From positions 480,001 to 544,000 of the forward strand of contig CBDCXM010000008.1 of the NCBI GenBank assembly GCA_965223855.1: 64,000 nt of DNA. Reading direction: 5' to 3'. Position 1 is the stretch's first letter; the number at the start of each line of letters is the position of its first letter. Positions 18,087 to 57,073 of this stretch are shown one piece after another. The notes under the pieces were generated by a model that was not told the origin of the DNA, did no database searches, and was given only the letters and a program-made list of their open reading frames with translations. Source of the stretch: Candidatus Multivoradales bacterium. GTDB lineage: Bacteria > Acidobacteriota > Thermoanaerobaculia > Multivoradales > JAHEKO01. Position numbers and translations under genes: made by a program.

Positions 18087-19436
18087 ATGGCCGTGAGACC
18101 AGACAACCGGCGATCGAACCGATCGGTGGGGCGCAACTTCGCACTCTGCCTCGGGCTCCTGAGCCTGACGGCGAGGCCTTCGGCCGGCGTCGATCCGCGC
18201 CTCGAGTGGGACGGTGTCCTCAATGAGCAGGTGAAGCTGCTTGCGAGCGACGGTGCCGAGGGGGACGCCTTCGGCGGAGGGATCGCGATGGACGGCGACA
18301 CCCTGGCGATCGCAGCACCGCTCGAGGACGGAAGCGGTGCCAGCACCGGTGCCGTCTACGTCTTCATCCGGCAGGGTGGGACGTGGTCCGAAGCTGCAAA
18401 GCTGGTCGCGACCGCCGTGGTCGACTCGCTAGGCACCGGCCTGGCGGTCGAGGGCGACGTGGTGTTCGCCGCCGACTTCCATGACCAGGGAGCGGTTCAC
18501 GTGTTCGAGCGGCCTCCCGGAGGCTGGAGCGGGACCGTGAACGAGGTCGCCACGCTGCTACCGGCCGACGCCGACGCGTTCGGTCGTGCGATCGTCGCCG
18601 CGGAAGGCGACTCGGTCTTCGTCGGCAGTTGGACGCCGACGGAAGGGATCGGGACGATCTACGTCTACGAGCAGCCGCCCGGAGGCTGGAGCGGAACCGT
18701 GAACGAAGTCGCCGAGCTGCGACAGAGCGACACCGTACCCGGGGAACTCTTCCCAACGCTGCTCTCGGCTTCCGGGGACACGGTCGTGGCCGGTTGCGGA
18801 GGCTGCGACGACAACGGCCCTCTCTCCGGAGCGGCCTACGTCTTCGAGACCCCCGTAGGCGGCTGGACCGGGATCGTCAACGAGTCGGCCAAGCTCCTGC
18901 CGAGCCTGGGGATGAGCGATGACTTCTTCGGCGGTCGCCTGGCCGCCTCTGAAAGCACGGTCATCGTCGGTTCGGGTGGCGACGCCAGCCTGGCGGGCGC
19001 CGCCTACGTTTACGAGGAGCCTGCCGGAGGGTGGAGCGGGACGCTGACCGAGGATGCACGACTGGAGCCGTCCGACCTCGCGGCCGACGACCGTTTCGGT
19101 CCGGTCGCGATCGACGGCGAGACCGTGCTCGGAGGCTCGTGGGGGGACGCCGACAACGGTGCCTTCTCGGGGTCGGCCTACATCTTCGAACGGCCGGCCG
19201 GCGGTTGGTCGGGAACGGTCGGCGAGTCCGCCAAGCTGCTCGCCAGCGACGGCGTGACCGGAGACGTCCTTGGCGAGCGCGGCGTGATCGAGGGGCAGAC
19301 CGTCGTGTTGACCGCCCGGGGTCACGATCAGAACGGCGACCTGGCCGGCGCGGCCTACGTCTTCGAGGACATCCTGATGTTCAGCGACGGCTTCGAGTCG
19401 GGCGACACCTCGGCCTGGTCCGTAACCGTCCCTTGA
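18087..19436 (+). CDS. Secreted FG-GAP repeat (integrin-like beta-propeller) protein with DGFESGD C-terminal tail
   Basis: AGGAG RBS before ATG 18087; signal peptide; repeats KLLASDG..GDxFG / GAAYVFE; ends MFSDGFESGDTSAWSVTVP. Confidence 0.88.
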   Translation: MAVRPDNRRSNRSVGRNFALCLGLLSLTARPSAGVDPRLEWDGVLNEQVKLLASDGAEGDAFGGGIAMDGDTLAIAAPLEDGSGASTGAVYVFIRQGGTWSEAAKLVATAVVDSLGTGLAVEGDVVFAADFHDQGAVHVFERPPGGWSGTVNEVATLLPADADAFGRAIVAAEGDSVFVGSWTPTEGIGTIYVYEQPPGGWSGTVNEVAELRQSDTVPGELFPTLLSASGDTVVAGCGGCDDNGPLSGAAYVFETPVGGWTGIVNESAKLLPSLGMSDDFFGGRLAASESTVIVGSGGDASLAGAAYVYEEPAGGWSGTLTEDARLEPSDLAADDRFGPVAIDGETVLGGSWGDADNGAFSGSAYIFERPAGGWSGTVGESAKLLASDGVTGDVLGERGVIEGQTVVLTARGHDQNGDLAGAAYVFEDILMFSDGFESGDTSAWSVTVP

Positions 19437-19602
19437 CATGAAACCGGCGAGACAATCACGACCTGGGGAAACGCCCGTCTCCGGGCCGTCCCATCCGTCG
19501 AGCTCAGGTGTTCTTGGTCCCGGGGTCCGACCGCCCGGAGGCGGTGCGGCTCGAGAGGACGACTTCCCGGTGAGATCGGATCGTGAGAAGAGGAGTGTGA
19601 CC

Positions 19603-20868
19603 ATGGGGCAGGAAAGCCAGCCATCGCACCGTTGGACTCTACGGACCCTGGCGCTCTACGTCTGGCTTTCGAGCGGCTGGGCGGGGCCGGCGGCCGGCAT
19701 CGACCCGCACCTCGAGTGGGAGGGTGTCCTCAACGAGAAGGTGAAGCTGCTGGCGAGCGATGGTGCCGACGGGGACTTCTTCGGTACCGGAATCGCGATG
19801 GACGGAAACACCCTGGTGATCGCTGCGCCAGGGGATGACGACGGAGGTGACGCCTCCGGTTCCCTCTACGTCTTCCTCCGACAGGGCGGGACCTGGACGG
19901 AGGCCGCGAAGCTGGTCGCGAGCACCCCGGCCGATTTCGACCAGCTCGGTCTCTACGTGGCGGTCGCGGGCGACACGGTCGCTGCCACGGTGTTCGATGC
20001 TCGCGGAACCGTCCACGTCTTCGAGCGCCCTCCCGGGGGTTGGAGCGGCACCGTCACCGAGGTGGCCACTCTGCTACCGGCCGACGGCAGTTCCAACAAC
20101 ACCGACCACATCGCTGCCGAAGGGGACACGATCTTCGTCGGCGGCTTCGTGCCCGCGGCGGGCATCGGGACGGTCTTCGTCTACGAGCGCCTGCCGGAGG
20201 CTGGGCCGGGGTGGTGAACGAGTCCGCCGAGCTGCGACAGAGCGACGGCATCCTTTCGGACACGTTTCCCGGGCAGCTCGGTCTCCGGCGACACCGTCGT
20301 TGCCGTTGCCCGCTGTGCGGACAACGGTGGCAACTCCGGATCGGCGACGTGTTCGAGGCTCCTGCCGGCGGGTGGACCGGGGTCGTAAACGAGTCGGCTC
20401 TGGCGAGCCCGACGGATGACGTCTTCGGAGCTCACACTGCGCCGACACGGTGGTCGTCGGCGCCTTTCGCGCCGTCGGCCAGGCGGGCGCAGATCTTCGA
20501 GGAGCCAGCGGGAGGGTGGGCTGGAACTCTGACCGAGACTGCCCGCCTGGAGCCCTCGGACCTCGCACCTTCGAGTTCGGTTCGGTCGCCATCGACGGCG
20601 AGACCGTGGTCGGCGGTTCGTCCCGGGACGACGAGCCTCGCGGGGTCGATGTCTTCGAGCGCCCGGCCGGCGGATGGACGGGGACGGTTGCCGAATCGGC
20701 CAAGCTGCTGGCCAGCGACTGGAGCCGAGCCGATGGCGCACGGTCCTCGAGACAGTGGGCCGACCAGAACGGCGACCAGGCCGGCGCGGACGTCTTCGAG
20801 GCTCCATGATCTTCACCGACGGCTTCGAGTCCGGCGACACCTCGAGCTGGTCCAGTACCGTCCCCTGA
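19603..20868 (+). pseudogene. Tandem paralogue of the FG-GAP protein with multiple frameshifts (pseudogene or sequencing error)
   Basis: GIDPHLEWEGVLNEKVKLLASDG matches the upstream paralogue. Intact to about 20190, then homology continues in shifting frames to IFTDGFESGDTSSWSSTVP*. Confidence 0.75.
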
Positions 20869-20925
20869 GCGGGACGCCGAGAGCACCCCGGTTCGAGCCG
20901 GCTCTCATCCCCTGCGCCGATTTCA

Positions 20926-21104
20926 GCCCCCGGCCGCCCGTGAGCGCCGAGGGGGGCCTGAGCCGAGCCCGAAAGCCGCTCAGACACTGACCGGCCCCCC
21001 GGGCCACGGCGAAGGAGCGCGCGCCGCCCACCCAACTGCCGAGGACGCGCGACGCCCTCCTCGGGCTCAGCCTTCGGGCTGCCGCGGGCCGGCATCCTCG
21101 CGAT
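20926..21104 (+). repeat. Palindromic repeat element family A, copy 1 (divergent)
   Basis: Shares gccccggccgcccg..tgagcgccgagggggg, tgagccgagcccgaaagcc, ggcgaaggagcgcgc, ctcgggctcag.cttcgg and gggccggcatc.tcgcgat with copies at 30258 and 34273. Confidence 0.85.
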
Positions 21105-21564
21105 GTCCGCCGTCCGGAGCTCTGGAGCCCAAGAGCGCCGACCTCAGATCGAGGCACGCCGACTCCAGGGGTGACAGAGGCTCGACTCCAGGGAGACGCC
21201 GTCTGCCGAGCCGGCGATCGAGAATCGCGAGCGCTCGAAGTACCGCGTCGTCGGTAGCCAGAGCCCTTTCGACCGTGAGCGACTGGAACGCTTCCACCGA
21301 CGCCCGGAACTGCTCCGGCTTGTGCCGCCCCTCGCGTTGGAGGAGGCGTCGGACCTCCTGCTGAGATCGCCCCTCGGCCATGAGTGGCCCTTCGAGCTTC
21401 CAGTACGAGACATCGTCCATGCCGGCGATCTCGCTACCGTCAATCAGGACCGCCCAGCGCCAGACCTCCACCGTCCGGTAACCGGTGAGGAACAGGTCTA
21501 CCCGAGGGCGAACCCCCGGCTCCCACCGTTCCCGCGCGACGGTCCTGAGCTTCGACCACCTCAC
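21067..21564 (-). CDS. Hypothetical protein resembling the SF0329 family
   Basis: GTG start after GAGG; MRWSKLR...RVDLFLTGYR...IDG and RALAILDRRLGRRRL motifs. The C-terminus runs into repeat copy 1. Confidence 0.65.
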   Translation of the reverse strand: MRWSKLRTVARERWEPGVRPRVDLFLTGYRTVEVWRWAVLIDGSEIAGMDDVSYWKLEGPLMAEGRSQQEVRRLLQREGRHKPEQFRASVEAFQSLTVERALATDDAVLRALAILDRRLGRRRLPGVEPLSPLESACLDLRSALLGSRAPDGGHREDAGPRQPEG

Positions 21565-21583
21565 ATCCTCAGAGTCTTCCCGG

Positions 21584-21994
21584 TCACCCGTCCTTCGCCA
21601 CCAGAAGTGCCAGCAGCGCCAGCAACAGACACAACGGCGAGAACAGAAGGTCATCCCAGAGGGCGAAGCGGGTGCCGCGCCGGCGCTTCGTGAAGCCGAC
21701 CCAACGCAGATCGCCGAAGGCGCGCACTCCAAACACAACCGCCACCGCGAGCGTTCCGTAGCGGGTCCAGCCGGAGCTTCCGGTGCCGATCAGGCCGGCG
21801 TGAAGCGCCACGACACCCGCGAAAGCGACCAGACCGAGCGCCACGGCCATCGTCCCTGCAGGCCCCGGCTGGAAGAGCGGCTCGCCGTCCGACTCCGGAA
21901 CCGTCACCGACTTCCCCACCGAACCGCCCAGCGCCCAGTAAACGTGCAGAGCGGCGATCACCAGCAGTAGCCCTACCAGCGATCCGACGATCAT
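21584..21994 (-). CDS. DUF3995-like membrane protein
   Basis: LHVYWALGG, RAFGDLRWVGF, FALWDDLLFSPLCL motifs. Confidence 0.8.
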   Translation of the reverse strand: MIVGSLVGLLLVIAALHVYWALGGSVGKSVTVPESDGEPLFQPGPAGTMAVALGLVAFAGVVALHAGLIGTGSSGWTRYGTLAVAVVFGVRAFGDLRWVGFTKRRRGTRFALWDDLLFSPLCLLLALLALLVAKDG

Positions 21995-22014
21995 CGGTCT
22001 TCCACCCGAGCCCT

Positions 22015-23565
22015 CTACTCCAACCTATCGGTCTCGCGCACGAACCGCGCCAGATCTTCCCGGAACTTCACCAGCGACGGCTCGTGGAGGTACATCATGT
22101 GTCCCGCTTCGTAGAGTTCGAGGTGAATCCGCTCGCGTACTTCCGGAGCGACGTCGAGGTGCTCGACGTCGTGCTTGGTGGCGAGCGTCGGGGTCGCGAG
22201 ATCGTAGTAGCCCTGCTGGACGAGGAGGTGCAGCCCGGGGTTCATCGTCAGAGCCATGGCGAGATCGCTGCGCAGGTTCGCCCACGGCTCGACCCAGCCG
22301 CCCGAGGTCGGCGGCCGGTGGCCCCAGTCCCAGTCGGAGACGCCGCCCATGATCTGGTAGGTCTCCTCACGCCCGAAGTCGAGCTCGCCGTGCATGTAGT
22401 CGAGAAAGGCGGCGGTGAACGCCGGGCCGACCGCGGGGAAGAACGGGTCGTAGTCCATCTCCTCGGAGAGCGGGTTGACCGACGGGCCGATGAAGCGCGA
22501 GTCGATGCGACCTGCGATGCGCCGTTCATCCCGCTTGAGCTCCTGAACGAACTGCGTGTGGCTCACCCGGAGGTCGGCCTTCAGCCAGTAGTCCGCCGAG
22601 GTCCCCGTGTAGGCGGCGAGCTTCGCCGCCACCGCCTGCTTCTCGTCGTCCGCGATCGTGTACCCCTTGAGGAGCGCCGGTGCGTACTCGTCGTAGGCGA
22701 AGCGCTCGACCTCCTCGTGAAACGCCTCGAGGTCGGGCTGATCGGGCACCATGCCGTGGTACCAGGCGGTCGCCGCGAGCGTCGGCAGGTAGAGGACGTG
22801 CGGCAGGTCGATGCCGCCACCGTCGATCCCCGATCCCATGTTGAGGAAGGGCGAGACGACGACCACGCCGTTGAAGTTCATCCCGTGGACCGTCTGCAGG
22901 TGCCAGACGAGCCCGGCGCTGCGCACACCGCCGTAGCTCTCGCCGAGGATGTACTTGGGCGACGCCCAGCGACCGTTGAGGGTGACGTACTCCTTGACGA
23001 ACGAGCCGACCGAGCGGATGTCCTGATCGACCCCCCAGAAGTCCTTGCCCGTCGCCTCACCGAGCGGCTTGCTGAAGCCGGTGCCGACCGGATCGACCAT
23101 CACCAGATCGGTCACGTCGAGGATGCTGTACTCGTTGTCGACCCGCATCGCCGGCGGCGGCGGCGCGTACCCCTCGTCCTCGACCACCACCCGCTGCGGG
23201 CCGAGCACCCCCATGTGGAGCCAGATGGAAGACGAGCCCGGCCCGCCGTTGAAGGCGAACATGACCGGCCTCCGGCTGAGGTCGTCGACGCCGTCGCGGG
23301 TGTAGGCGGTGTAGCCGAACCTTGCGATCGGCTCGTCCTTTTCGCTCTCGAGGATCAGCCAGCCGGCGGTCGCCGTGTAGTCGATGCGCTGGCCGTCGAT
23401 GGTGACCCGGTGGCGGGTCTCGGAAGAAGCCGCCTCCGGCTTCTCCGCCGCCATCTCCTTCTCCATCCCGGAGCCCGCCTCTTCGGCGTGGACGGGTGCG
23501 AGGGCGAGCAGAGCGACGAAAACGAAGACGAGGGCGATGCGAGAACTCGGAGACGCTGGAGACAT
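22015..23565 (-). CDS. S10 family serine carboxypeptidase (secreted)
   Basis: FNGGPGSSS, DPVGTGFS, catalytic GESYGG, GYYDLATP, YEAGHMMY. Confidence 0.93.
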   Translation of the reverse strand: MSPASPSSRIALVFVFVALLALAPVHAEEAGSGMEKEMAAEKPEAASSETRHRVTIDGQRIDYTATAGWLILESEKDEPIARFGYTAYTRDGVDDLSRRPVMFAFNGGPGSSSIWLHMGVLGPQRVVVEDEGYAPPPPAMRVDNEYSILDVTDLVMVDPVGTGFSKPLGEATGKDFWGVDQDIRSVGSFVKEYVTLNGRWASPKYILGESYGGVRSAGLVWHLQTVHGMNFNGVVVVSPFLNMGSGIDGGGIDLPHVLYLPTLAATAWYHGMVPDQPDLEAFHEEVERFAYDEYAPALLKGYTIADDEKQAVAAKLAAYTGTSADYWLKADLRVSHTQFVQELKRDERRIAGRIDSRFIGPSVNPLSEEMDYDPFFPAVGPAFTAAFLDYMHGELDFGREETYQIMGGVSDWDWGHRPPTSGGWVEPWANLRSDLAMALTMNPGLHLLVQQGYYDLATPTLATKHDVEHLDVAPEVRERIHLELYEAGHMMYLHEPSLVKFREDLARFVRETDRLE

Positions 23566-23655
23566 CGAGGAACCTCCGGGAGAAGGCGCATGAGCGCGGA
23601 ACTGGTGAGACGAGCGGGCAGTCTAGCAACCGGTCCCTGTGGCCGGGCCGCGTTC

Positions 23656-24042
23656 TCAGCCCACCTGACGCCAGCCGCCGGCGACATGCAGCATCGCTCC
23701 GGCTCCGAAGGCGTACAGTCCTAGACTGCTCCAGGCGGAACGGCCGAGGCCGCCGATCGGCTCGACGACGAAGGCGGCGATCAGGAGCACGCTCGCCAAG
23801 CCGAGAAGCCCGCTTCCCGCTGCCTGCGACCGGCGTCTCCAACCGGCGGCGAACGGGGTCAGATACGTCGCCAGCAGCAGATGGGCGAGGGCGAGCCCCA
23901 GCATGTAGATGTGCCGCGAGACGAAGAGCATGTGCTCGCCGCCGGGGAGGGTCTCGAGCCGGGTGAAGAGCCTCATGTAGGCCCCCGAACCGAGGAACGC
24001 CACCAAGGTCAGGGCACCGAAGATCGCATGGGTGCGCCTCAT
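23656..24042 (-). CDS. Hypothetical 4-TM membrane protein
   Basis: Four hydrophobic segments; SRHIY motif. Confidence 0.7.
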   Translation of the reverse strand: MRRTHAIFGALTLVAFLGSGAYMRLFTRLETLPGGEHMLFVSRHIYMLGLALAHLLLATYLTPFAAGWRRRSQAAGSGLLGLASVLLIAAFVVEPIGGLGRSAWSSLGLYAFGAGAMLHVAGGWRQVG

Positions 24043-24073
24043 CGCCGCTTCATCGTACTCGCTGGCCCGAACT

Positions 24074-24249
24074 TCTCACGCCGGTGTGCTCTGGAAGGCC
24101 GTAGGTTGCTGAAGATACAAGGCTTCCGGTTGCGAGCACCGGAGACATAGCCTTAGCTACGCCGAGGAACGCAGTGACCGGGAAACGCAGTAGATTCAGT
24201 GACATACGGTCTTCCTGACTAGTCCGTCGCACAGTGCAGCGGCGGGAGA
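24074..24249 (+). ncRNA. Candidate structured non-coding RNA (about 176 nt)
   Basis: Nested complementarity: 24074-24083/24240-24249, 24093-24113/24195-24215 (with G-U pairs only on the + strand), and internal hairpin aaggcttccggt..accgga..agcctt. Confidence 0.5.
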
Positions 24250-24270
24250 TGCTCAGGCTAGACTTCCCGG

Positions 24271-24807
24271 GTGACGAAGCCGCTGGTACTGCTGATCGAT
24301 CGACGGTGGGACGGAGCACCGATCGCCTCGGCGGAACGGGCCGGCGTGACGCTCGCCACCCTTGCCGGCGGATGGGAGATCGTGGTCGAGGCGCCTTTCC
24401 ACGACGACCCGCCGCCCGAAGGTTCTCCGGGATCGACCGACGGGCTCTGGAACCACGAGGTCGTCGAACTGTTCGTCGCGGTATGCGGGCCGTCGGACCG
24501 CGTGCGCTACACCGAGATCGAGCTTTCGCCCCACGGCCACCACCTGGTGCTCGACTTCCGCGGCGTCCGCCGGCGCCAGGCCGTCGTCCAACCGCTGTCG
24601 ATGACCGCCGGGATCGAGGGTGCGAGATGGCACGCTCGGATGGCGCTGCCGCTCGACGCCCTGCCGCCGCAACCGTGGCGGGTCAACGCCTTCGCCATCC
24701 ACGGCGTGGGAAGGCATCGACGCTACCTGGCGGCCTTCCCAGTCCCAGGAGAACGGCCCGACTTCCACCAGCCGGCGGCCTTCCCGATGGCCGGAGGTCT
24801 CCCCTGA
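24271..24807 (+). CDS. UPF0462/C4orf33-like protein (DOMON/CBM9-like fold)
   Basis: APFHDDPPP..G...LWNHEVVELF...YTEIELSPHGHHLVL...NAFAIHG...PDFH motifs. Confidence 0.7.
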   Translation: MTKPLVLLIDRRWDGAPIASAERAGVTLATLAGGWEIVVEAPFHDDPPPEGSPGSTDGLWNHEVVELFVAVCGPSDRVRYTEIELSPHGHHLVLDFRGVRRRQAVVQPLSMTAGIEGARWHARMALPLDALPPQPWRVNAFAIHGVGRHRRYLAAFPVPGERPDFHQPAAFPMAGGLP

Positions 24808-24814
24808 CACGAGG

Positions 24815-25975
24815 TCAGGGCTCGAGAGCGGCCCGGAAGCGCTCACCGAGGCCGGAGAGCCGCTCGATGGGTTCGTTCGAGAACACGAGACGAACATAGC
24901 GAGCCACAACGTCGCTCCCCCAGTTCGTCATCGGCGTCGCCGCCACCTTGCCGTGCTCGAGCAGACGCCGCGACGCCTCGGCGCCGGACAGCCCGAGCGG
25001 CGCAACATCCACCAGCAGCGACCAGCCTCCCTGCGGGGGGATCGCGACGAAGCCGGCCAGCTCCTCGAGAACCCGATCGCGCCGCCGCTGCCACTCGGCG
25101 ACGCAGGTCGCGATGCCGTCGTCCGGGTCGTCGATCGCCGCCGCCACCGCGCCCATGGCAATGCCGGTCTGGCAGACGACGTTGGTGAGGCTCACCCTGG
25201 CCACATCCGCCAGGATCGGCGCCGGACCGACGACCCAGCCGGTTCGCCAGCCGATCATCCGGTACTCCTTGGAGGCGGAGCCGACCGTAATCACCCGCTC
25301 GCGCATCTCCGGAAGCGACGCCGGATGGAGCACCTCGCGACCGTCAAAGAGCAGTCGCTCCATCGCCGCGTCATGGATCCACCAGGCGTCGGCGCGGCGG
25401 CAGAAGTCGGCCAGCGCCTCCGTCTCGGCCCGGTCGAACACCGAGCCGGTCGGCATCGACGGGCTCATCAGCAGCGCCGCCGTCACCGGCCCCGGGTCGA
25501 TCGAGCTCAGCGCGTCGGTGTCGAGCCGCCAGCCATCCACCCCGGGGACCAGCGGCACGAAGCGCGGCACCCCGCCGACCAGCCGCACCCGGTTGATCAG
25601 ACCGACGTAGGTCGGGTCGGTCAGCAGCACTTCGTCGCCCGGCTCGATCGTCGCCAGGAGCACGTTGAGGATGCCGGCCAGGCCGCCGGCGCTCGCCACG
25701 CACTCCGTCGCCCAGTCGTACTCGCGCCTGCTCAGCCGCGATACCAGAGCGGTGGCCGACCGGCGGGTCGAATCGAGGCCGACGAACGGCAGATAGCTGT
25801 TGGCGTCGTCGTCGTCGATCGCCTGCTTCGTGAAGTCGAGCGCCGACTGTGGCGGGCGCAGGTCGGTGTCGAGGTTCTCGAGGCGGAGGACGTCCGGATC
25901 GTCGAGACGGTCGGCCAGGGCGCCGAGGTCCTCGACGCCGATTCGGGTTACGTGTTGGAGTCGGGAGACCGGCAT
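24815..25975 (-). CDS. PLP-dependent aminotransferase class I/II
   Basis: PGDEVLLTDPTY, PSMPTG, DAAME, GSASKEYRMIGWRTGW (PLP lysine). Confidence 0.92.
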   Translation of the reverse strand: MPVSRLQHVTRIGVEDLGALADRLDDPDVLRLENLDTDLRPPQSALDFTKQAIDDDDANSYLPFVGLDSTRRSATALVSRLSRREYDWATECVASAGGLAGILNVLLATIEPGDEVLLTDPTYVGLINRVRLVGGVPRFVPLVPGVDGWRLDTDALSSIDPGPVTAALLMSPSMPTGSVFDRAETEALADFCRRADAWWIHDAAMERLLFDGREVLHPASLPEMRERVITVGSASKEYRMIGWRTGWVVGPAPILADVARVSLTNVVCQTGIAMGAVAAAIDDPDDGIATCVAEWQRRRDRVLEELAGFVAIPPQGGWSLLVDVAPLGLSGAEASRRLLEHGKVAATPMTNWGSDVVARYVRLVFSNEPIERLSGLGERFRAALEP

Positions 25976-26009
25976 CGAGTCACACGAGCAGAGGGAAGAG
26001 TGGCTGGCT

Positions 26010-41831: not shown

Positions 41832-43334
41832 TCAGGGGACCGTCGACGTCCAGGCCGATGTGTCGCCGCTCTCGAAGCCGTCGTCGAAGATCTCCGGCGG
41901 CAGCGACAGCGACGCCCGCACCGACCCCCAGCCATAGGTGTTGTTGGGAGTCTGCGAATCGGGGATGCCGCCGCAGGTCTGGCCGGTCACCGTGCCGGGG
42001 ACCGCCGTGGACATCAGATGCTGTTCGATCGCGTCCGGATCGCCCGAGAAGGAAGGGTCGGCGGAGATCAGCAGCCCGACGAGCCCTGAAACGTGCGGCG
42101 CCGCCATGCTCGTGCCGCTGGAGAAGCCGTAGCCGCTGGGAGGCACCGAAGAGCGGATCGACACCCCGGGGGCCGAGACGTCCGGCTTGAGGCGCTGGCT
42201 GCCGTCGACGGTCACCGGGCCGCGCGAGGAGAAACTCGCGATCGTGTCGCTCAGGCTCACTGCGCCGACGCTGAAGGTCGCTTCGTAGATCGCCGCCGGA
42301 GTGTTGACGGTGCTGCAGCCCGGCCCGCTGTTGGCGGCCGCCTGCGAGACGACGATCCCGGCGGCTCGCAGGCTCTCCACCACCGATCTGAGGACGTTCG
42401 GATCGGTGCAACCCTCGGAAGGGGGACAGCTCCACGAGCCGTTCACCACGTCGGGAGCGAGGCCCGGATCGGGGTTGTTGCCGGCGAGATCGGTCGGGGC
42501 GAGGAAGAACTGGAAACACTCGCTGTAGGTCGTCGGTGTGCCGTTGCCCCGGTCCATGTTGCGGCAGCCGATCCACCTCGCTCCGGGCGCCACGCCGATC
42601 TTGTTGCTGCCGCCGTCGTCACCGACCATCGTTCCCATCGTGTGCGTGCCGTGGGAACCGTCGTCGCATGGCTGCGTCGAGTCGAATCCGCAAGACCCGC
42701 CGCCCGAGTGGATCGCGTCGTGCCAGTTGTAGTCGTGCACCGCCGCCGAGCCGTCCCAGCCGCGATACTGATCGCGCAACGCCGGGTGGTCCCAGTCGTA
42801 GCCGGTATCGGCACCGGCGATCACCGTCCCCTGACCGGTGAACCCCTGAGCCCAGAAGTCGGTCGCGCCGACGTGCGCGAGACTCGGTTCGGCGCCGAGC
42901 ACAGCCGCCGAGTCAGCCGCAGTCACCTTGGGGGCGACGAACCGCACCGACGGGTTGGCGTGGATCCGCGCGACGTCTCCGCGGCCGGCGAGGCCGACCA
43001 GTGCCTCCTCGCCGCCCCGCACCCAGATCATGTTCGCGATCCAGTACGGCCGGTGCTCGAGGCCACGGGACTCGAGCTCCTCCAGCAACGGCCCCTGCGT
43101 GGCGCGGGCGATCGAGGTGAGGCGCTCGAAGACGAAGCGCCCCTTCTCCGCCTTGGTCCCGAGGGTGCGCGCGGCCGACAGGTCCGCCTGACGCTCGAGA
43201 ACGACGAGGAACTCGGTCTCTCCCGAGAGCGCGACCTGATCGAGGACCCAGGGATCGACTTTCGTCTCCCAGTCGCTGGCGGTCAGGGGAGAGACGGTTG
43301 CGACGACGACGAGAAAGGCACTGAGGACTCGCAT
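41832..43334 (-). CDS. Secreted S8 subtilisin-like serine protease with DGFESGD C-terminal tail
   Basis: DTG, HGTHTMGT, GTSMAAPHV catalytic triad; signal peptide; ends IFDDGFESGDTSAWTSTVP. Confidence 0.95.
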   Translation of the reverse strand: MRVLSAFLVVVATVSPLTASDWETKVDPWVLDQVALSGETEFLVVLERQADLSAARTLGTKAEKGRFVFERLTSIARATQGPLLEELESRGLEHRPYWIANMIWVRGGEEALVGLAGRGDVARIHANPSVRFVAPKVTAADSAAVLGAEPSLAHVGATDFWAQGFTGQGTVIAGADTGYDWDHPALRDQYRGWDGSAAVHDYNWHDAIHSGGGSCGFDSTQPCDDGSHGTHTMGTMVGDDGGSNKIGVAPGARWIGCRNMDRGNGTPTTYSECFQFFLAPTDLAGNNPDPGLAPDVVNGSWSCPPSEGCTDPNVLRSVVESLRAAGIVVSQAAANSGPGCSTVNTPAAIYEATFSVGAVSLSDTIASFSSRGPVTVDGSQRLKPDVSAPGVSIRSSVPPSGYGFSSGTSMAAPHVSGLVGLLISADPSFSGDPDAIEQHLMSTAVPGTVTGQTCGGIPDSQTPNNTYGWGSVRASLSLPPEIFDDGFESGDTSAWTSTVP

Positions 43335-49501: not shown

Positions 49502-49556
49502 GGGAGCCGCCTGAGCTGGTCCGAAGCGCTCGCGCTCGCGTCGGGCTCGTCTCGCC

Positions 49557-49781: not shown

Positions 49782-49797
49782 GTCGTGCCCGCTCCCC

Positions 49798-50139
49798 TCA
49801 GCGACGGCCGCGCAGCAGGACGCCGACGAAGAAGCCGATCCCGGCTGCGATCAGCACCGACTTGCCCGGGTTGTCGCGCACGTACTCGTTGACGTCCTCG
49901 ACCAGCTTCTCTGTGTCCTTGTGGACACGGTCGTAGCCGTGCTTCAGGTTGTCGACGGCAACGCCGTACTTCTCCTTGGCGAACTCTCCGGCACGCTCCG
50001 CCGATTCGCGCACCTGGGCGCCGCCCTGGCGTGCCTTCTCCGCAACCTCACCGAACTTCTCGCGTGCCTGCTCGAGCTTCGCCTTGCCGGCGCTGACGGC
50101 CTCGGCGACCTCTTCCTTGACTTCTGCCTTCTTTGCCAT
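49798..50139 (-). CDS. DUF883 (ElaB/YqjD-like) membrane-anchored protein
   Basis: YVRDNPGKSVLIAAGIGFFVGVLLRGRR; GGAGG RBS. Confidence 0.88.
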   Translation of the reverse strand: MAKKAEVKEEVAEAVSAGKAKLEQAREKFGEVAEKARQGGAQVRESAERAGEFAKEKYGVAVDNLKHGYDRVHKDTEKLVEDVNEYVRDNPGKSVLIAAGIGFFVGVLLRGRR

Positions 50140-50223
50140 GATTCCTCCAACTCGGCCCTCATCCGGGACCGGTAATCAATGTACAACATCCCCTGAAAGC
50201 ACGCTACAATCTCCGCTCTCCGT

Positions 50224-50299
50224 GGGGCAGTAGCTCAGCTGGGAGAGCACCACGTTCGCAACGTGGGGGTCGGGGGTTCAAGTCCCCTCTGCTCCACCA
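50224..50299 (+). tRNA. tRNA-Ala (anticodon CGC)
   Basis: 76-nt cloverleaf GGGGCAG...CTGCTCCACCA with G3:U70 Ala determinant; anticodon arm ccacg-ttCGCaa-cgtgg; TACAAT upstream. Confidence 0.97.
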
Positions 50300-50307
50300 T
50301 TCTCGTT

Positions 50308-51684
50308 TTGGTACCCCTCGAAGATCCCTGGCTGCCGATCGCGGCGCTCCTCGTCGGAGGAGTGGTCGGATGGGCTCTCACGGCCCTGGCACTCTCGAGG
50401 CGCAGTCATCGCAGGACGCTCGACACCGCCGAGCGCCTGGCCAGCGCGGAGACCCTGGCGCACACCGAGAAGGACCGCCGCCTGCAGGCCGAAGCGGAGC
50501 TGCTGGCGACCGAGGAGCGCCTCGCGACGGTCGATCGCGACCTCGCCGTCGCCCGCGAGCGCGCCGAGGGTGCGGGGCGACTGTTCGAAGAGCAACGCAG
50601 CTTCGTCGAAGGCTCCCGCAAACAGCTCGAGGACGCCTTCGGGTCGCTGGCGGCAGCCGCACTCCAGGGGAGCTCGGAGCAGTTCCTGGCGCTGGCCGAA
50701 CAGCGTCTCGACAAGGAACGCTCGGCGGCGCGCGCCGAACTCGACGAGCGCAAACAGGCGGTCGAGGGGCTCGTGACACCGCTGCGCGAATCGCTCGAGC
50801 GGCTCGATCGGCGCACCGGTGAGCTCGAGAAGAACCGCGCCGCCGATCATTCGCGCCTCGGTGAGCAGGTCGAGCAGCTCGCCCGCACGACCGCCAACCT
50901 GAGGGACGAGACGCTCTCGCTGACCACAGCGCTGAGGGGCACCGAAGTCGGCGGCCGCTGGGGCGAGCTCGCCCTGCGCCGGGTCGCCGAGATCGCCGGG
51001 ATGACCGCGCACTGCGATTTCCAGGAACAGTTGACCCTCGCCGACGGGGCGCGCCCGGACATGGTCGTCCACCTGCCGGAGGGGCGACGCATCGCGGTCG
51101 ATGCCAAAGCACCGCTCAACGCCTTTCTCGACGCCTCGCGAGCCCGCAAGCGCCCGGAGCGCCGGGAGGCGCTGGAGCGCTACTCGAAGGCGCTGCGCGG
51201 TCACGTCCGTCAGCTCGCGTCACGTGACTACGCGGCGGCGCTCGGCGCCGACACCGACTTCGTCGTCCTCTTCCTGCCGGCGGACGCGTTCCTCGGCGCC
51301 GCTTTCCGCAGCGATCCCGACCTCCAGGTCGATGCGCTGCGCTCCAAGGTGCTGCTGGCGACGCCGACCACCCTGGTGGCGCTGCTGCGAACGGTCGCCA
51401 TCTACTGGCAGCAGCGATCGATGGCGGACAACGCGGAGGCGATCGCCGAGGTGGCGAGGGAGCTCTACGCGCGGGCGGCCAAGTTCAGCGAGGATCTCGG
51501 CTCGATCGGCCGCGGCCTGACGGCGGCGCTCGACGCCTACGACCGGGCGGTCGGCTCCTTCGACCGTCGCCTGATGCCGATGGGCCAGAGGCTCGACGAG
51601 CTCAAGGTGTCGGACGGGACTCGTCGCGACCTGGACGCGCCCGAGATCGTCGGTCGCAAGCCACGGCGGATCGAGAGCGAGTAG
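50308..51684 (+). CDS. rmuC: DNA recombination protein RmuC
   Basis: N-terminal TM, coiled coil, GRWGELALRR, RPDMVVHLP, VDAKAPL, FVVLFLP, TPTTLVALL; first start after the tRNA is TTG 50308. Confidence 0.92.
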   Translation: MVPLEDPWLPIAALLVGGVVGWALTALALSRRSHRRTLDTAERLASAETLAHTEKDRRLQAEAELLATEERLATVDRDLAVARERAEGAGRLFEEQRSFVEGSRKQLEDAFGSLAAAALQGSSEQFLALAEQRLDKERSAARAELDERKQAVEGLVTPLRESLERLDRRTGELEKNRAADHSRLGEQVEQLARTTANLRDETLSLTTALRGTEVGGRWGELALRRVAEIAGMTAHCDFQEQLTLADGARPDMVVHLPEGRRIAVDAKAPLNAFLDASRARKRPERREALERYSKALRGHVRQLASRDYAAALGADTDFVVLFLPADAFLGAAFRSDPDLQVDALRSKVLLATPTTLVALLRTVAIYWQQRSMADNAEAIAEVARELYARAAKFSEDLGSIGRGLTAALDAYDRAVGSFDRRLMPMGQRLDELKVSDGTRRDLDAPEIVGRKPRRIESE

Positions 51685-51714
51685 CTCTCGCTCGACGGCC
51701 CTCTCGGAACCGGC

Positions 51715-52383
51715 CTACTGGTCGTCCGCCGTCGCGCCGATCATCGGGACGAAGCGCACCGGCACGATGTCGCGACGCACCAGCTCGCCCTCCTGCGTCT
51801 TGACCAGCAGCTCGAGCTTCTGAATCGAGCCGGATCCTACCGGGACCACCATTCGCCCTCCCGGAGCGAGCTGGGTGACGAGAGTGACGGGAACCGAGCG
51901 CGGCGCCGCGGTGACGATCACGGCGTCGAACGGCGCCTCCTCCGGCCACCCGGCATAGCCGTTGCCGATCCGGACATGGACGTTGGTGTAGCCGAGATCT
52001 TCGAGCAGACGGCCCGCCTCGCTGCCGAGCTCTTCGCGGATCTCGATCGTGTAGACCTCCCCCGCCAGCTCGGCCAGCACCGCAGCCTGGTAGCCGGAAC
52101 CGGTGCCGATCTCGAGCACCCTCTCGTCACCGGCGAGATCGAGCAGCTCCGTCATCAGAGCGACGATGTAGGGCTGCGAGATCGTCTGGCCGTCTCCGAT
52201 CGGCAGCGGCGAATCAACGTAGGCGTCAGCAGCGAGTCGATCGGGGACGAAGCGGTGCCTCGGCACCGACTCCATCGCCGCCAGCACCCGAGAGTCTTCG
52301 ACCCCGCGCGCCGCGATCTGCCGATCGACCATCTCCTGGCGCCGCTCCAGGAAGGGGTCGTCGGAAGAAAGGGATTGACTCAT
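51715..52383 (-). CDS. pcm: Protein-L-isoaspartate O-methyltransferase (start may extend to about 52467 with a signal-like segment)
   Basis: VPRHRF, GQTISQPYIVA, VLEIGTGSGYQAA, APFDAVIVTAA, VRFVPM. Confidence 0.94.
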   Translation of the reverse strand: MSQSLSSDDPFLERRQEMVDRQIAARGVEDSRVLAAMESVPRHRFVPDRLAADAYVDSPLPIGDGQTISQPYIVALMTELLDLAGDERVLEIGTGSGYQAAVLAELAGEVYTIEIREELGSEAGRLLEDLGYTNVHVRIGNGYAGWPEEAPFDAVIVTAAPRSVPVTLVTQLAPGGRMVVPVGSGSIQKLELLVKTQEGELVRRDIVPVRFVPMIGATADDQ

Positions 52384-52682
52384 CACGGCTCCGGGCTCGA
52401 CCCAGAGGGCGACGGCGGCAGCAACGGCGCCGAGCCGCCACCGATCGCGCCGTCCGGCGTCCTCCAACGCGGACGCCTGCGAGGCGCTTCGGGGCGCGAC
52501 TCGCCTGCGGCTACCGCGGCGCCCGCTGACGTTGCACTTCATCACTGGGACTCGGCCTCCATTGTGACAACCGGGAGAAGCAAATGCCAAGCCAGAGCCG
52601 CCTGCCGGCCCCGGGCGATGCCGCCGATACCGTCAGGGAGTAGACTCCTTCCTTCGCCCTCACGACCCTACCCCTCATCGAC

Positions 52683-54092
52683 ATGACAGATCACGAGACT
52701 CCACCCGGGAGCGGCCTCTGGGCCGACATCCGCGCCGCCATCCTGGGCTCCCGGCAGGACTTCACGACGGGACCGATCGGCCGTGCCGTGCTCGTGTTGT
52801 CGATCCCGATGATGCTCGAGATGGTCGGTCAGTCGATCTTCGGCATCGTCGACGCGTACTTCGTCGGCCGGCTGGGCGAGGCGCCGCTAGCCGGCGTGGC
52901 CTTGACGGAATCGCTGCTCTACCTCGTTTTCGCCGTCGCCCTCGGACTCGCGATGGCGACGACCGCCTTCGTGGCGCGGCGGATCGGCGAGCAGGACGCC
53001 GAACGCGCCTCTCGCGGCGCGTTCCAGGCGCTCGTGCTCGGGCTGCTGTGCTCCCTGCCGTTCGCACTGATCGGCATCTTCTTCGCACCCCAGCTACTCT
53101 CGCTTCTCGGCGCGGAGCCAGAGACGATCGAGGCCGGCACCGGCTATGCGCAGATCGTGCTCGGCGGCAGCTCCACGGTCTTCTTCCTGTTCCTGATCAA
53201 CGCGATCTTCCGTGGGGCGGGCGACGCCACCCTGGCGATGAAGGCGCTGTGGATCGCCAACCTGCTCAACATCGCCCTCGACCCGATCCTGATCTTCGGC
53301 TGGGGGCCGATACCCGCTCTCGGAGTCACCGGCGCCGGAGTCGCCACCACGGTGGCTCGGGCGGTCGGTGTCGCCTATCAGCTGCGGCTGCTGTCGAAGG
53401 GTGTCGGGCGCCTGCACATCGCCCGCGACGCCGTCGGCCTCGACCGCGAGATTCAGCGCCGGCTCCTCAGGGTCGCCGGCCCCGGCATGCTGCAGTTCCT
53501 CGTCGGCACCTGCAGCTGGCTCGCGATCGTCCGCATCATCGCCGTCTACGGCACCGCAGCGCTCGCCGGCTATGTCGTCGCAGTGCGGATCCTCGTCTTC
53601 GCCCTGATGCCCTCCTGGGGCATGGCCAACGCCGCCGCCACCCTGGTCGGGCAGAACCTGGGCGCGTCAAAGCCCGAGCGAGCCGAGCGATCGGTGTGGC
53701 TGACCGCCGCCGCGAACTCGATCTTCCTCGGCGCCGTAGCGGTGATCCTCGTCGCCTTCGCTCAGCACCTGGTCGCACCCTTCTCGAACTCCGAAGAGGT
53801 GCTGCGCTTCGGCGCCGACTGCCTCCGTATCGTCAGCTACAGCTACGTCTTCTTCGGCGTCGGCATGGTGGCGATTCAGGCCTTCAACGGCGCCGGAGAC
53901 ACGACGACGCCGACCTGGATCAACTTCCTCTGCTACTGGGTCCTGCAACTGCCGCTCGCCTGGTACCTCGCCGAGCCCCTCGAGTGGGGCGCGCACGGCG
54001 TCTTCTGGGCGATCACCGCCACCCAGGGGGCGATCGCCGTCGTCGGAGCGCTCTGGTTCCGACGCGGGAGCTGGAAGGAACGGACGGTCTAG
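52683..54092 (+). CDS. MATE family efflux transporter
   Basis: VDAYFVGRLG, IFRGAGDA, NIALDPILIFG, VGQNLGA, FNGAGDT. Confidence 0.93.
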   Translation: MTDHETPPGSGLWADIRAAILGSRQDFTTGPIGRAVLVLSIPMMLEMVGQSIFGIVDAYFVGRLGEAPLAGVALTESLLYLVFAVALGLAMATTAFVARRIGEQDAERASRGAFQALVLGLLCSLPFALIGIFFAPQLLSLLGAEPETIEAGTGYAQIVLGGSSTVFFLFLINAIFRGAGDATLAMKALWIANLLNIALDPILIFGWGPIPALGVTGAGVATTVARAVGVAYQLRLLSKGVGRLHIARDAVGLDREIQRRLLRVAGPGMLQFLVGTCSWLAIVRIIAVYGTAALAGYVVAVRILVFALMPSWGMANAAATLVGQNLGASKPERAERSVWLTAAANSIFLGAVAVILVAFAQHLVAPFSNSEEVLRFGADCLRIVSYSYVFFGVGMVAIQAFNGAGDTTTPTWINFLCYWVLQLPLAWYLAEPLEWGAHGVFWAITATQGAIAVVGALWFRRGSWKERTV

Positions 54093-54116
54093 CCCGTCTG
54101 CCTCACGCCTCGGCGC

Positions 54117-54836
54117 TCAGTCGACCGTGAAGGTTTGCAGCTCGACCGGCACCGGAGCGCCGTCGAGCGCGAACAGCAGGTCGGGGGCCGCGGCGCCGCA
54201 GCCGGAGCCCGCCTGCCACGAGAGGCAACCGGTACCGAAGCCGTCACCGGGGTTCTCCCACAGGAACTCGGCTCCCGTCTGCGTCGAACGCTCGCTCCAC
54301 AGCCACTGGCCGCCGACCGCCCTGTCCATCTGCACCCTGACCGACAGCCAGTAGTCACCCGGGGCGAGCTGGCACAGCGTCGGCAGGAAGATCTCGAAGC
54401 TCCCGGCGCCGTCGTCCGTGAAGTCGACCCCGGACTCGAGGCCGAGGTAACTGCAGGCCGCCGGCTCCGCCGGGAGCCCGCCGAGATCGCTGAAGAACTC
54501 CACATCGACGAGCGGTGCCGGACCGGGGCCGTTGAGATAGCTGCCGAGGACGCGCACTCCCCCGACATTCCAACCCTCGTCGGCCGCCGGAACGGAGAAA
54601 TCGTCCGCCGCGCGGCAGTCGAAGGCTGCATCGACCGGCTCGAAGATCTGGCTGGAAAAGCCGACCCCCGCCGGGTCGTCGGTCTGGTCGTAGAGGGTGC
54701 CGCCGAGGCTGGAACTCGCAGCGACCTCGGCCTCGAGTTCGGGCTCCGCCCTCAGGTCCGCCGTCGGCTGAGCCTCGGCGGCCGTGACCGCCACGAGGAA
54801 GGGCACCGCGGCTATCGCGATTCGTACCTTGGTCAT
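54117..54836 (-). CDS. Secreted hypothetical protein ending in PVPVELQTFTVD
   Basis: Signal peptide (AAEA-QP); LYDQ..AADDF..LAPGDYWLSV beta domain; GGGAG RBS before ATG 54836. Confidence 0.8.
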   Translation of the reverse strand: MTKVRIAIAAVPFLVAVTAAEAQPTADLRAEPELEAEVAASSSLGGTLYDQTDDPAGVGFSSQIFEPVDAAFDCRAADDFSVPAADEGWNVGGVRVLGSYLNGPGPAPLVDVEFFSDLGGLPAEPAACSYLGLESGVDFTDDGAGSFEIFLPTLCQLAPGDYWLSVRVQMDRAVGGQWLWSERSTQTGAEFLWENPGDGFGTGCLSWQAGSGCGAAAPDLLFALDGAPVPVELQTFTVD

Positions 54837-54856
54837 CTGCGCTTTCTCCCGTCGAA

Positions 54857-57073
54857 CTACGGAATCGTGTTGCTCCAGGCCGAGGTGTCTCCCGATTCGA
54901 AGCCGTCCTCGAAGATCGTCGACGGTTCGAGCTCGAGCAGCGAGACGTCGTCGACGAACGCGTCGACCGCGAGGCCGGCCGGCGACCGCAGCGTCACCGA
55001 ACACAAGGCCGAGGAGGTCGTCGGCGGCGTCGTGAGCTCACCTGCGAACGGCGTCCACACTCCCGACGTCGAGATGGTGTCGAAGAACGCCTGCGTCGGC
55101 AGGCTCGTGCCCGTGCAGTCGTCGGAGGAGAAGAAGTCGCACGCCCTCAGCACCTCGACCGTGCCGCCGGTGGTGTCGAGATTGACCGAACCGCTGAACT
55201 CGTACACGCCGTTCGAGCCGATCGGCACGCACTGGCCGATCGACAGATCGCCCGCGCCCGAGTCGATCTCGAACGCCGCCGATCCCGAGACGAGCGCGTC
55301 GTCGATGTCGGTCAGCGGGTCGTGGGTGATCGACGAGCCGAACTCGACGACCGGCACCCACGGCCCCAGATCGCAGTCGAAGTGGCCGCGGGCCAGGCGA
55401 TCGTTGGCATCGACGCGGAACTGACGCACGAAGTCGTCGCCGCCGATGAAGTCGCCGTCGCCGTCGAGCTCGTTGCCGGCCTCGTCGAGAAGGCCGCCGG
55501 GACCGCTGCAGGCGAGGACGCGGTACGGCCCGTCGATCAGCCCGTCCGGCTCGTCGAACAGGACGGTGGCCAGCAGGTCGGCCGCCTCGTAGTCGACCGT
55601 GTCGATCGGGATCAGCACGTCGTCGCCGACCGCCGGTCCGCAGGCGGTGGTCGACAGGTCGAGATCGGGCCCCGCGCCGACGATCTGCCACGAGGCAGGA
55701 TCGAGCACCGAGGCGACGTCCATCTCCTCGGAGAAGACGAAGCGGGCTCCGACCGTCTTGCGGAAGACGTTCTCGCATTCCTCCAGCGTGCCGTCACCGC
55801 TGAGCTTGATGCTGTCGATGTTGGCGATCGTCGGCGACAGCAGGTCGTTGATCGGGGTCGTGTCGCTGGCCATCGCCTCGACCGGCACGCCTCCGGTGCC
55901 GGCCCCGTCGTCCGCCATCGCCGCGTCGTTCGTGACGAGGTCCGGCGCATCCTGCGGCGGCACGACCTCGACCGCGAAGATCACGGTGTCGATCGTCTGT
56001 GCGGCGAGCAGGCCGTAGGTGAACTGACAGGGGGTCCCCTCGGGATCGCCGTCAGCACAGCTCCAACCGGCGGTCGAAGCTCCCGCATCGAACGTCGTGC
56101 CGGCCGGCACCGTCTCGTCGATCACCACCCCACTGGCATCCTGCAGTCCGGTGTTTTCGAGCGTCAGGGTGTACGGGATCGTCGTGCCCGGATCGAAGGC
56201 TCCGCCGCCGTCGTCCTTCGTCAGGGTGAAGGCGGGATCGGCGTCGATCGGGATGTCGGCCTGGGTCGTGTCGAAGAGCGGCGTCTTCGGCGACGAGATC
56301 TGCGCGGTGTTCGTGAACACCTCGAGGCCGGCGGCGACGGTCGCATCGACCACCGCCTCGTACAGCACCGTGACGGATCCCCCACCGCCCGGGACGGTGG
56401 TGACGGTGATGTCCACAGTGTTGCCGCCGCTGTTGTCGACTGCGCCTGAAGCGCCCCCTCCGAGGATCACCGAGATCGACCCGAGGTCGAGTGTCATCCC
56501 GGCGGGCAGCGCGTCGTTCACGTTGACGCTTACGTCGTCGCCGTTGCCGGTGTTGGAGAGGCTCACGGCATAGCTCAGCCGCTCGCCCGGATCGGCATCG
56601 CCGTCGTTGTTGCCGGCGCTGTCATCGACCGTCATCGTGGCACCGGCGAGATTCGGTGCGGCCAGCACGCTCGTCACGGTCGGATCCTCGTCGCCACCGA
56701 CATCGGGGTCGTCGCTGAGCAGTCCTCCCGCGAGATCGGGACTCGCCAGCGTCGCCTGCGAGGCCACCTCGGTGACGCTGTTGGGGAACGGGTTGTTGAC
56801 GGTGGCGGAGAAGAAGACCCGCAGAGTCTTGCCTTGCGGCAGAACCGGGATGGTGAAGGCGTTCGTCACCGGCCCTTCCGGAGCGTCGCCGCCCTTGCCG
56901 AGGCTCGGCCGATCGAATGCGCTGCCGGAGAGCTCTGCAGTTCCGGACGAAGACTCGCTCCGGACCTTCTGCCCAGCTTCCCGAGCCGCCGCCGCACTCG
57001 AGCCGACGGCCACGAGCAGGACGAGCCAGCTCGCCGGGTTCTTCCACCAGTCTCTTGCTCTGGATCCCATCAT
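54857..57073 (-). CDS. Secreted DUF11-repeat/Ig-like protein with DGFESGD C-terminal tail
   Basis: Signal peptide; DUF11 motifs (PGERLSYAVSLSNTG..DALPAGMT; PGTTIPYTLTLENTG..DETVPAGTTF); Big_5-like FSEEMD region; ends IFEDGFESGDTSAWSNTIP. Confidence 0.85.
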   Translation of the reverse strand: MMGSRARDWWKNPASWLVLLVAVGSSAAAAREAGQKVRSESSSGTAELSGSAFDRPSLGKGGDAPEGPVTNAFTIPVLPQGKTLRVFFSATVNNPFPNSVTEVASQATLASPDLAGGLLSDDPDVGGDEDPTVTSVLAAPNLAGATMTVDDSAGNNDGDADPGERLSYAVSLSNTGNGDDVSVNVNDALPAGMTLDLGSISVILGGGASGAVDNSGGNTVDITVTTVPGGGGSVTVLYEAVVDATVAAGLEVFTNTAQISSPKTPLFDTTQADIPIDADPAFTLTKDDGGGAFDPGTTIPYTLTLENTGLQDASGVVIDETVPAGTTFDAGASTAGWSCADGDPEGTPCQFTYGLLAAQTIDTVIFAVEVVPPQDAPDLVTNDAAMADDGAGTGGVPVEAMASDTTPINDLLSPTIANIDSIKLSGDGTLEECENVFRKTVGARFVFSEEMDVASVLDPASWQIVGAGPDLDLSTTACGPAVGDDVLIPIDTVDYEAADLLATVLFDEPDGLIDGPYRVLACSGPGGLLDEAGNELDGDGDFIGGDDFVRQFRVDANDRLARGHFDCDLGPWVPVVEFGSSITHDPLTDIDDALVSGSAAFEIDSGAGDLSIGQCVPIGSNGVYEFSGSVNLDTTGGTVEVLRACDFFSSDDCTGTSLPTQAFFDTISTSGVWTPFAGELTTPPTTSSALCSVTLRSPAGLAVDAFVDDVSLLELEPSTIFEDGFESGDTSAWSNTIP

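Follow-up and report, generated by a model that had tools for sequence, protein, structure and literature searches.

In a 64,000-nucleotide stretch of DNA from a Candidatus Multivoradales bacterium (class Thermoanaerobaculia, phylum Acidobacteriota; contig CBDCXM010000008.1, positions 480,001 to 544,000), four genes of secreted proteins end in a shared 19-residue peptide, here called the DGFE tag. This stretch, the window, is C8:480001-544000 of the genome that we designate G000. We found that the tag is the first strand of a beta-jelly-roll domain and that the same genome encodes, outside the window, a secreted copy of this domain, the catcher, which misses exactly that strand. We propose that tag and catcher form a split-domain pair acting as an envelope-anchoring system, a reading to which we give a probability of roughly 0.74. 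Physical pairing of the two partners is very probable, and envelope anchoring is the likely purpose of such pairing. Homology, the missing strand, co-occurrence, a split point that covaries with tag length and anchor fusions were read from the sequences themselves, and the binding geometry is predicted.

The tag is one strand of a parent domain

Genome G000 comprises 4.52 Mb with about 3580 predicted genes and is 92% complete. The genome-wide count of C-terminal tags called for in a preliminary description of the window was made with a weight matrix over its open reading frames (ORFs) and gave 92 copies. Of these, 82 lie exactly 19 residues before the stop codon, 7 lie at 21-48 residues and 3 just behind a signal peptide. 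The weakest real tag scored 27.3 and the best match on reversed ORFs 1.5, so the matches are not due to chance. Tag carriers make up about 2.5% of predicted genes, and 61 families are represented among the 90 tagged predicted genes. Synonymous codons vary among the tags, indicating that the peptide is the conserved thing, in agreement with the earlier claim that selection acts on the peptide rather than on the DNA. A crude signal-peptide rule was passed by 81 of the 92 tagged ORFs and by 268 of 600 background genes; it is weak evidence because so many background genes pass too. Judged by eye, the signals are mostly of the Sec type, with one twin-arginine (Tat) signal. A membrane helix or basic tail follows the tag in none of the 92 ORFs, just as had been claimed for the window. 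Close homologs are labelled Thermoanaerobaculia or Acidobacteriota in their source records. Two tag-bearing tails of 28-29 residues matched no Pfam or NCBIfam model, and no published description of tag or catcher was found in the literature covered, which excludes subscription journals and supplements. Neighbour enrichment revealed no candidate machinery beside tagged genes, the largest gene family (75 members) flanking tags 9 times against 7.5 expected.

The tag had been described as always occupying the exact C-terminus, and internal copies had been named as grounds for abandoning the idea of a sorting tag. The position holds for most copies and not for all: three are N-terminal, and elsewhere the motif forms the first strand of whole domains. 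These internal copies explain the tag rather than refute it. One protein with an N-terminal copy, P0002, runs on into a beta-rich domain, and its relatives (103 proteins, 98 segments) define a beta-jelly-roll domain of about 200 residues of which the tag is the first 19 or so. The suspected resemblance of the tag to the first strand of such a domain was thereby borne out. This parent domain occurs in tandem arrays and at C-termini, and is weakly similar to PF14099.

When the tag columns were left out, the domain profile matched a second ORF of the genome, C9:733682-734308 (- strand). Its product, P0105, is the catcher, a protein of 208 residues (about 184 when mature) consisting of a signal peptide followed by profile positions 20-199 (E 2e-30). 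It is present in single copy and misses exactly the part which the tag supplies; by pattern, the tag is absent from 55 of 56 catcher homologs. A single-sequence search with P0001 had missed the catcher, which was recovered by the profile search. Its structure model is all-beta (pLDDT 89.7), with jelly-roll lyases as the nearest folds (2zzj, 13% identity). P0105 had no sequence match in Pfam, NCBIfam or the PDB, its structure-atlas neighbours are hypothetical proteins, and neither a related-locus search among named genomes nor a plasmid search returned a match. Names were obtained by cluster look-ups for only 3 of 20 proteins, too few to fix the taxonomic range of the whole domain.

Several other proteins carry the motif in unusual settings. 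Two secreted proteins (C9:748660-749562, + strand; C9:2463250-2464269, - strand) have the tag directly behind the signal peptide, and docking may therefore be possible from either end. P0002 itself (C9:2131011-2131784, - strand; L001:9012-9815) belongs to a family of proteins of about 205 residues, with a conserved N-terminal anchor or signal, the tag and then a partial jelly-roll domain. Its gene lies behind TMEM260-like, PIG-V-like and GT2 genes, and the protein may represent an intermediate or a partner connected with glycosylation. For P0120, a whole-domain protein, the two nearest atlas clusters are phage proteins, a lead to a surface-binding use of the fold.

Tag and catcher co-occur in Thermoanaerobaculia

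Phylogenetic profiling, proposed earlier as a way to find partner genes, was carried out on 151 genomes of the class, each at least 90% complete. The tag was scored by a strict pattern and the domain by a profile of 14 catchers found through single-sequence search. Tag-positive and domain-positive genomes numbered 23 each (14 of the 23 domain matches being the training genomes of the profile), 22 were positive for both and 127 for neither, the latter including G024, which is flagged unpublished and enters into no other claim. A tagless secreted catcher was present in 22 of the 23 domain-positive genomes and in all 18 genomes with at least five tags, and thus co-occurs with the tag. G301, positive for the domain only, does have a true C-terminal tag, a single one, which escaped the strict pattern.

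Reading of the domain matches gave 15 stand-alone catchers (one frameshifted near its end), 4 with SLH-type repeats, 1 with a dockerin, 2 with an insertion and 1 genome with whole domains only. In that genome, G386, the whole domains are fused to cargo and both tags begin those domains. The catcher gene of G131 lies 32 nucleotides downstream of a tagged gene, and the unsplit form is found in G131 as well. In G311, a 5017-residue open frame (L091; G311:C117:14177-17218) ends in a tag, 15 kb from the gene of the catcher-dockerin fusion. The C25 peptidase was considered as a partner of the DGFE tag and rejected, being found in 76 of the 151 genomes and not tracking the tag. A loose tag pattern applied to five genomes gave matches near control level and was uninformative for most of them.

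Lysobacterales have a different split point

Named genomes were scanned for I-F-x-[DN]-G-F-[DE] followed by a stop codon, and the 80 loci listed were mostly from Lysobacterales. The tag has 7 residues there. With the acidobacterial profile, one catcher was found in each of four Lysobacterales genomes with the short tail, and none in a Myxococcota genome whose motif match is not followed by a stop codon. The Lysobacterales catchers start 6-10 positions earlier and so retain the 'LSAW' strand. This tryptophan strand is present in 26 of 26 short-tag catchers versus 0 of 46 long-tag (acidobacterial) homologs; by a crude pattern it was scored in 2 of 14 catchers of a small acidobacterial seed. DGFE itself occurs in none of the catchers compared for the strand. 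As read from these alignments, tag length and catcher start covary, a short tag going with a long catcher and a long tag with a short one, which fits because complementation would demand it.

We also sampled 151 genomes of Lysobacterales. A first profile of 5 rows matched 43 of them, and a profile rebuilt with 26 rows matched 95, nearly all once, 26 of these 95 matches being training sequences. Catcher matches followed the number of motif matches: they were found in 78 of 89 genomes with at least 10 motifs, 6 of 9 with 3-9, 7 of 19 with 1-2 and 4 of 34 with none, or, pooled, in 84 of 98 genomes with at least 3 motifs and 11 of 53 with fewer. As 46 of the 95 matches were inspected as sequences, some weak ones may not be free catchers. 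Some Lysobacterales (L282, L283 and L284) have another catcher-like domain, which is joined to additional domains and followed by a degenerate tag-like motif.

A predicted complex of tag and catcher

Modelling of the peptide against a secreted protein had likewise been suggested, and we modelled the catcher together with the C-terminal 30 residues of the S8 protease encoded in the window. The complex scored 0.90, and the best of three controls 0.01. Of 157 solved complexes 116 attain the score mark applied, and of 215 mismatched pairs 2 do; with custom alignments these counts are approximate. Contacts agreed at 100% among runs, with a partner pLDDT of at least 78. In the model, the tag segment I-F-x-D-G-F is predicted to pair with catcher residues 178-182, the second phenylalanine of the tag to pack on V7, G18 and L19, and its tryptophan on V32-E34 and L161. 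The 33-residue predicted interface includes 7 of the 11 conserved catcher residues, and mean catcher conservation is 0.66 there versus 0.37 elsewhere. By analogy to related jelly-roll domains, a calcium site may lie between the acidic loop of the tag and D178.

Catchers are linked to anchoring modules

Three kinds of evidence favour anchoring as the role of the pair: fusions of catchers, the operons of one subgroup, and the exchange of C-terminal endings among cargo relatives. Among catchers of the class fused to SLH repeats, PF00395 was over cut-off in 3 of 3 scanned, and the catcher of G311 is fused to a dockerin (PF00404, over cut-off, E 9e-7). In one subgroup of Lysobacterales, catchers have a dockerin-like tail, with weak PF00404 matches in 6 of 6 scanned. 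Twelve operons of this subgroup were read. The catcher is followed in 9 of them by a small secreted protein, for which cohesins are the best match to the model, and then in all 12 by an Ig-repeat protein with a membrane helix and basic tail at its end. IPTL-CTERM was over cut-off in 3 of these 12 Ig-repeat proteins, and 2 had a weak cohesin match. The C-terminal position of the S8 cargo is also variously occupied: of its 120 closest relatives, 72 end in the long tag, 7 in SLH, 3 in a short tag, 3 in a dockerin-like tail, 4 in a membrane helix with basic tail and 12 in a short x-L-P-x-x tail, the last three labels being set by pattern.

Stand-alone catchers have a different setting. Sulfatase-family genes lie within 20 kb at 11 of 13 loci, 10 of them within about 2 kb, as against 16% of random 20-kb windows, and glycosyltransferase genes also adjoin these catchers, whose sequences diverge strongly (22-33% identity) except in the tag groove. 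From these neighbours and this variability, we infer a surface glycan as the ligand of the completed domain. Glycan binding is most likely how stand-alone catchers are anchored, and it is the weakest step of the argument. The conserved neighbours of the 13 loci included no chaperone, usher or secretion gene; a genome-wide usher search was not made.

Proposed mechanism and alternative explanations

According to the proposed mechanism, cargo would be taken across the inner membrane by the Sec or Tat pathway and would then fold. Its C-terminal peptide would slot into the single-copy, separately secreted jelly-roll catcher that lacks its first 19 or so residues, with I-F-x-D-G-F pairing with the last strand of the catcher and the phenylalanine and tryptophan filling its core. 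By this donor-strand complementation, the completed domain would keep the cargo at the cell envelope non-covalently; in relatives, the anchor would be SLH repeats, or a dockerin meeting a cohesin scaffold with an exosortase-type tail. Binding in the cell, anchoring, the glycan contact, the side of the outer membrane concerned and the possible calcium site are parts of this scheme that we infer. The preliminary description had left two options, a donor strand clipping cargo onto a scaffold and an export signal. The former is strongly supported because the tag forms the N-terminal strand of a jelly-roll domain, because a tagless secreted domain co-occurs with the tag and because the split point covaries with tag length; the latter has less support.

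Several observations weigh against anchoring by a tag and catcher pair. By pattern, G000 has no SLH, dockerin or IPTL tail, and its catcher lacks an anchor domain. The catcher ranks 185th of 3396 in codon use, which is fairly high and not extreme for one dock serving about 90 cargoes. In the class, the tag-only genome G350 has one pattern match, unsupported by the tag profile, and no domain. Nine Acidobacteriota from outside the class have 1-5 motif matches each, a number of which are internal, and none has a free catcher: seven gave no hit and two whole or fused domains only. Catcher matches are missing from 11 of the 89 tag-rich Lysobacterales genomes, and 11 catcher-positive genomes of this order have 0-2 motif matches. 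Kinship of the genomes means that the counts overstate independence, and they are therefore reported as counts and not as a test. Finally, as tag and catcher are halves of one domain whose fold is common, the complex may pass by likeness, and the model, though in favour of the predicted geometry, is not independent of the homology.

The pair might instead serve as an export address, the completed domain piloting cargo through the outer membrane, for example by type II secretion, and leaving no lasting anchor. The tag occurs on both Sec and Tat cargo, as for a post-folding step; 15 catchers of the class carry no anchor domain; and the genome has, besides a type IV pilus secretin cluster, one that we take to be type II-like, both being named by gene family. 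We consider this unlikely, as fusions of catchers to SLH or dockerin occur, as cohesin and IPTL-CTERM genes lie beside catchers, and as secretion genes are absent from the conserved neighbours of the 13 catcher loci. The whole domain was also found on a protein labelled Chloroflexota (1 of 10 looked up), a group that is not known to have a classic outer membrane.

It is less likely still that the catcher is itself a polymerising S-layer or matrix protein whose lattice is decorated by tagged proteins. The single copy, the Sec signal, the sulfatase-family and glycosyltransferase neighbours and the use of CGT or CGC for 11 of 11 arginine codons would suit such a role. A lattice subunit without its core strand, however, would need a tagged partner for every copy, the codon rank is moderate, and the catcher is about 20 kDa against the 52 kDa of the S-layer protein NpdA, which is encoded beside gsp genes (PMC10765051). 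Decay offers another explanation, and the least probable one: the tag would be what remains of a carbohydrate-binding domain degenerating at the C-terminus, or else a calcium or glycan motif that stands alone, with the catcher an unrelated leftover. Proteins with a tag and a partial domain do exist (the P0002 family), and sporadic tags without a catcher occur outside the class. Such decay is hard to square with 82 tags of equal length on 61 families with synonymous variation, with catchers that begin exactly at the end of the tag in two lineages and at two split points, and with conservation concentrated on the tag groove.

Beyond anchoring by tag and catcher as such, we lean, with less assurance, toward a wider reading: a protein-display system across two phyla derived from a split surface-binding domain, in which one swappable catcher would place 2-3% of gene products, with two split points, with SLH, dockerin-cohesin-exosortase or glycan anchors, and with a parallel system based on a second tag in the same cells.

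A second C-terminal tag

The second tag, P-V-E-L-x-x-F-x-[VI]-[DE] (PVEL), ends 13 proteins of G000, and its strict pattern was found in 10 of the 151 class genomes. Among 40 genomes tested, a small secreted FnIII-like domain (E <1e-22) was present in the same 10 and in G301, and in each genome with a strong match one copy has a C25 peptidase gene (PorU-like) no more than about 4 kb away. The PVEL tag and the FnIII-like domain probably constitute a second split tag-catcher system. In Lysobacterales of the Dokdonella type, the gene immediately after that of the DGFE catcher is PVEL-tagged at 12 of 30 loci, and the one behind it, at 3 of 4 loci read, encodes an Ig-repeat protein ending in the FnIII-like domain. 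An obligatory role of the PVEL system in anchoring the DGFE catcher was rejected, since no more than 10 of the 23 class genomes with the jelly-roll domain gave strong matches to the second catcher, and G266, which has no DGFE tag, gave such matches too.

Features of the window

The four tag peptides and their stop codons were confirmed (Table 1), as were the serine codons TCG, TCC, AGC and TCG, the 13 invariant columns among 19 and, by domain scan, the three reported cargo folds (FG-GAP_2 repeats, Peptidase_S8 and DUF11). The cargo with tag 2 is a paralog of the first FG-GAP protein, and the window therefore has three independent cargo families rather than four. The gene of this paralog has several frameshifts in the assembly. 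Short-read contigs from the same study have extra bases at its breaks, with about 20 small deletions in 1.3 kb of assembly; because of these insertions, the breaks are probably assembly errors in a gene that is intact in the organism. Similar breaks may be present in other tagged ORFs that lack a signal peptide.

Three tandem paralogs of about 172 residues (57879-59453, - strand), which we take to resemble phage tail-collar proteins, lie between the tagged DUF11 gene and a large Big_9/cadherin-like ORF (59524-63846, - strand). The latter has no visible signal peptide, and its start may lie further up.

Table 1. Tagged genes of the window and loci related to the PVEL tag (positions within the window unless a contig is given)
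Feature	Position	Strand	Basis or remark
Tag 1, 19 aa and stop	19377..19436	+	Read directly from sequence
Cargo with tag 1: secreted FG-GAP_2 repeat (beta-propeller) protein, 449 aa from likely ATG	18087..19436	+	PF14312, E 8e-54
Tag 2, 19 aa and stop	20809..20868	+	Read directly from sequence
Cargo with tag 2: FG-GAP paralog, frameshifted in assembly	19603..20868	+	Three frames; short-read contigs
Tag 3, 19 aa and stop	41832..41891	-	With 11 upstream residues, partner in complex model
Cargo with tag 3: secreted S8 subtilase, 503 aa	41832..43343	-	PF00082, E 1e-39
Tag 4, 19 aa and stop	54857..54916	-	Read directly from sequence
Cargo with tag 4: secreted DUF11 / Ig-like repeat protein, 738 aa	54857..57073	-	Domain scan
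Secreted protein ending in unrelated 10-aa tag P-V-E-L-x-x-F-x-V-D	54117..54836	-	Separate candidate system; PVEL-related
PVEL-related locus	C9:863141-865266	+	
PVEL-related locus	C8:12711-13238	+	

Implications

If the proposed pairing and anchoring are correct, they represent a new route of envelope sorting that uses neither an enzyme nor a membrane helix, only a peptide of 7-19 residues completing the fold of its receptor. They would also name a receptor for a tail carried by tens to more than 100 proteins per genome in Acidobacteriota and Lysobacterales that are common in soil and sea, and would place cellulosome-like assemblies outside their usual hosts. Cultured genera of Lysobacterales (Dokdonella, Tahibacter, Pseudofulvimonas and Marinicella) make the system testable. 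A search rule for orphan C-terminal tags follows: look for a domain starting with the tag, and then for a secreted copy of it without the tag. Being a natural short tag-catcher pair, the system may find use in protein display.

Comparison with known systems

As in cohesin-dockerin anchoring (PF00963 and PF00404), unrelated secreted enzymes here share a terminal module that would bind a scaffold non-covalently, and in one Lysobacterales subgroup the catcher joins a dockerin-cohesin chain. The cargo module is, however, a peptide of 7-19 residues rather than a folded dockerin of about 60, and it would complete the fold of its receptor, a single-copy jelly-roll. The tag has no PF00404 match, and no dockerin pattern was found in the genes of G000.

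In chaperone-usher pili, each pilin of the polymer has its Ig fold completed by the N-terminal extension of its neighbour, with the aid of a chaperone and an usher (PMC13721041). The principle that a peptide of one protein gives a missing beta-strand to another is shared, here as predicted by profile alignment and the complex model; unlike in pili, the peptide is C-terminal, sits on unrelated cargo and has a jelly-roll receptor. The gingipains of Porphyromonas gingivalis have motifs, ABM1 and ABM2, that hold the protease non-covalently on the surface, and a change in ABM1 releases it; the motifs come from one cleaved polyprotein and serve two proteases (PMC10319874), whereas separate genes and about 90 proteins are involved here.

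The sorting signals LPXTG (sortase), PEP-CTERM and IPTL-CTERM (exosortase) and GlyGly-CTERM (rhombosortase) also occupy the extreme C-terminus of many exported proteins, and such tails are interchangeable with the tag among the S8 relatives. They differ in that the tag has no membrane helix or basic tail and that its partner would be a binding domain instead of a transpeptidase. The C-terminal domain of the type IX secretion system (T9SS; PF18962, with PorV and PorU) is likewise a C-terminal address on many secreted proteins of diderms, but spans about 75 residues against 19 here. PF18962 matched none of the three window cargoes, and the T9SS was rejected as the machinery, PorV (PF19572) not being found in the 92% complete G000 while the control was found in Bacteroides.

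With polysaccharide-lyase-like jelly-rolls (PF14099, PF21340 and the PL20 structure 2zzj), the completed domain shares, as modelled, only the fold. NpdA is an S-layer protein of Dokdonella and Tahibacter; the catcher, encoded beside sulfatase and glycosyltransferase genes, is set apart from it (PMC10765051) by size and context. The system thus resembles cohesin-dockerin anchoring and the donor-strand principle, and loosely the gingipain ABM motifs, yet by the features that define each of these it belongs to none of them.

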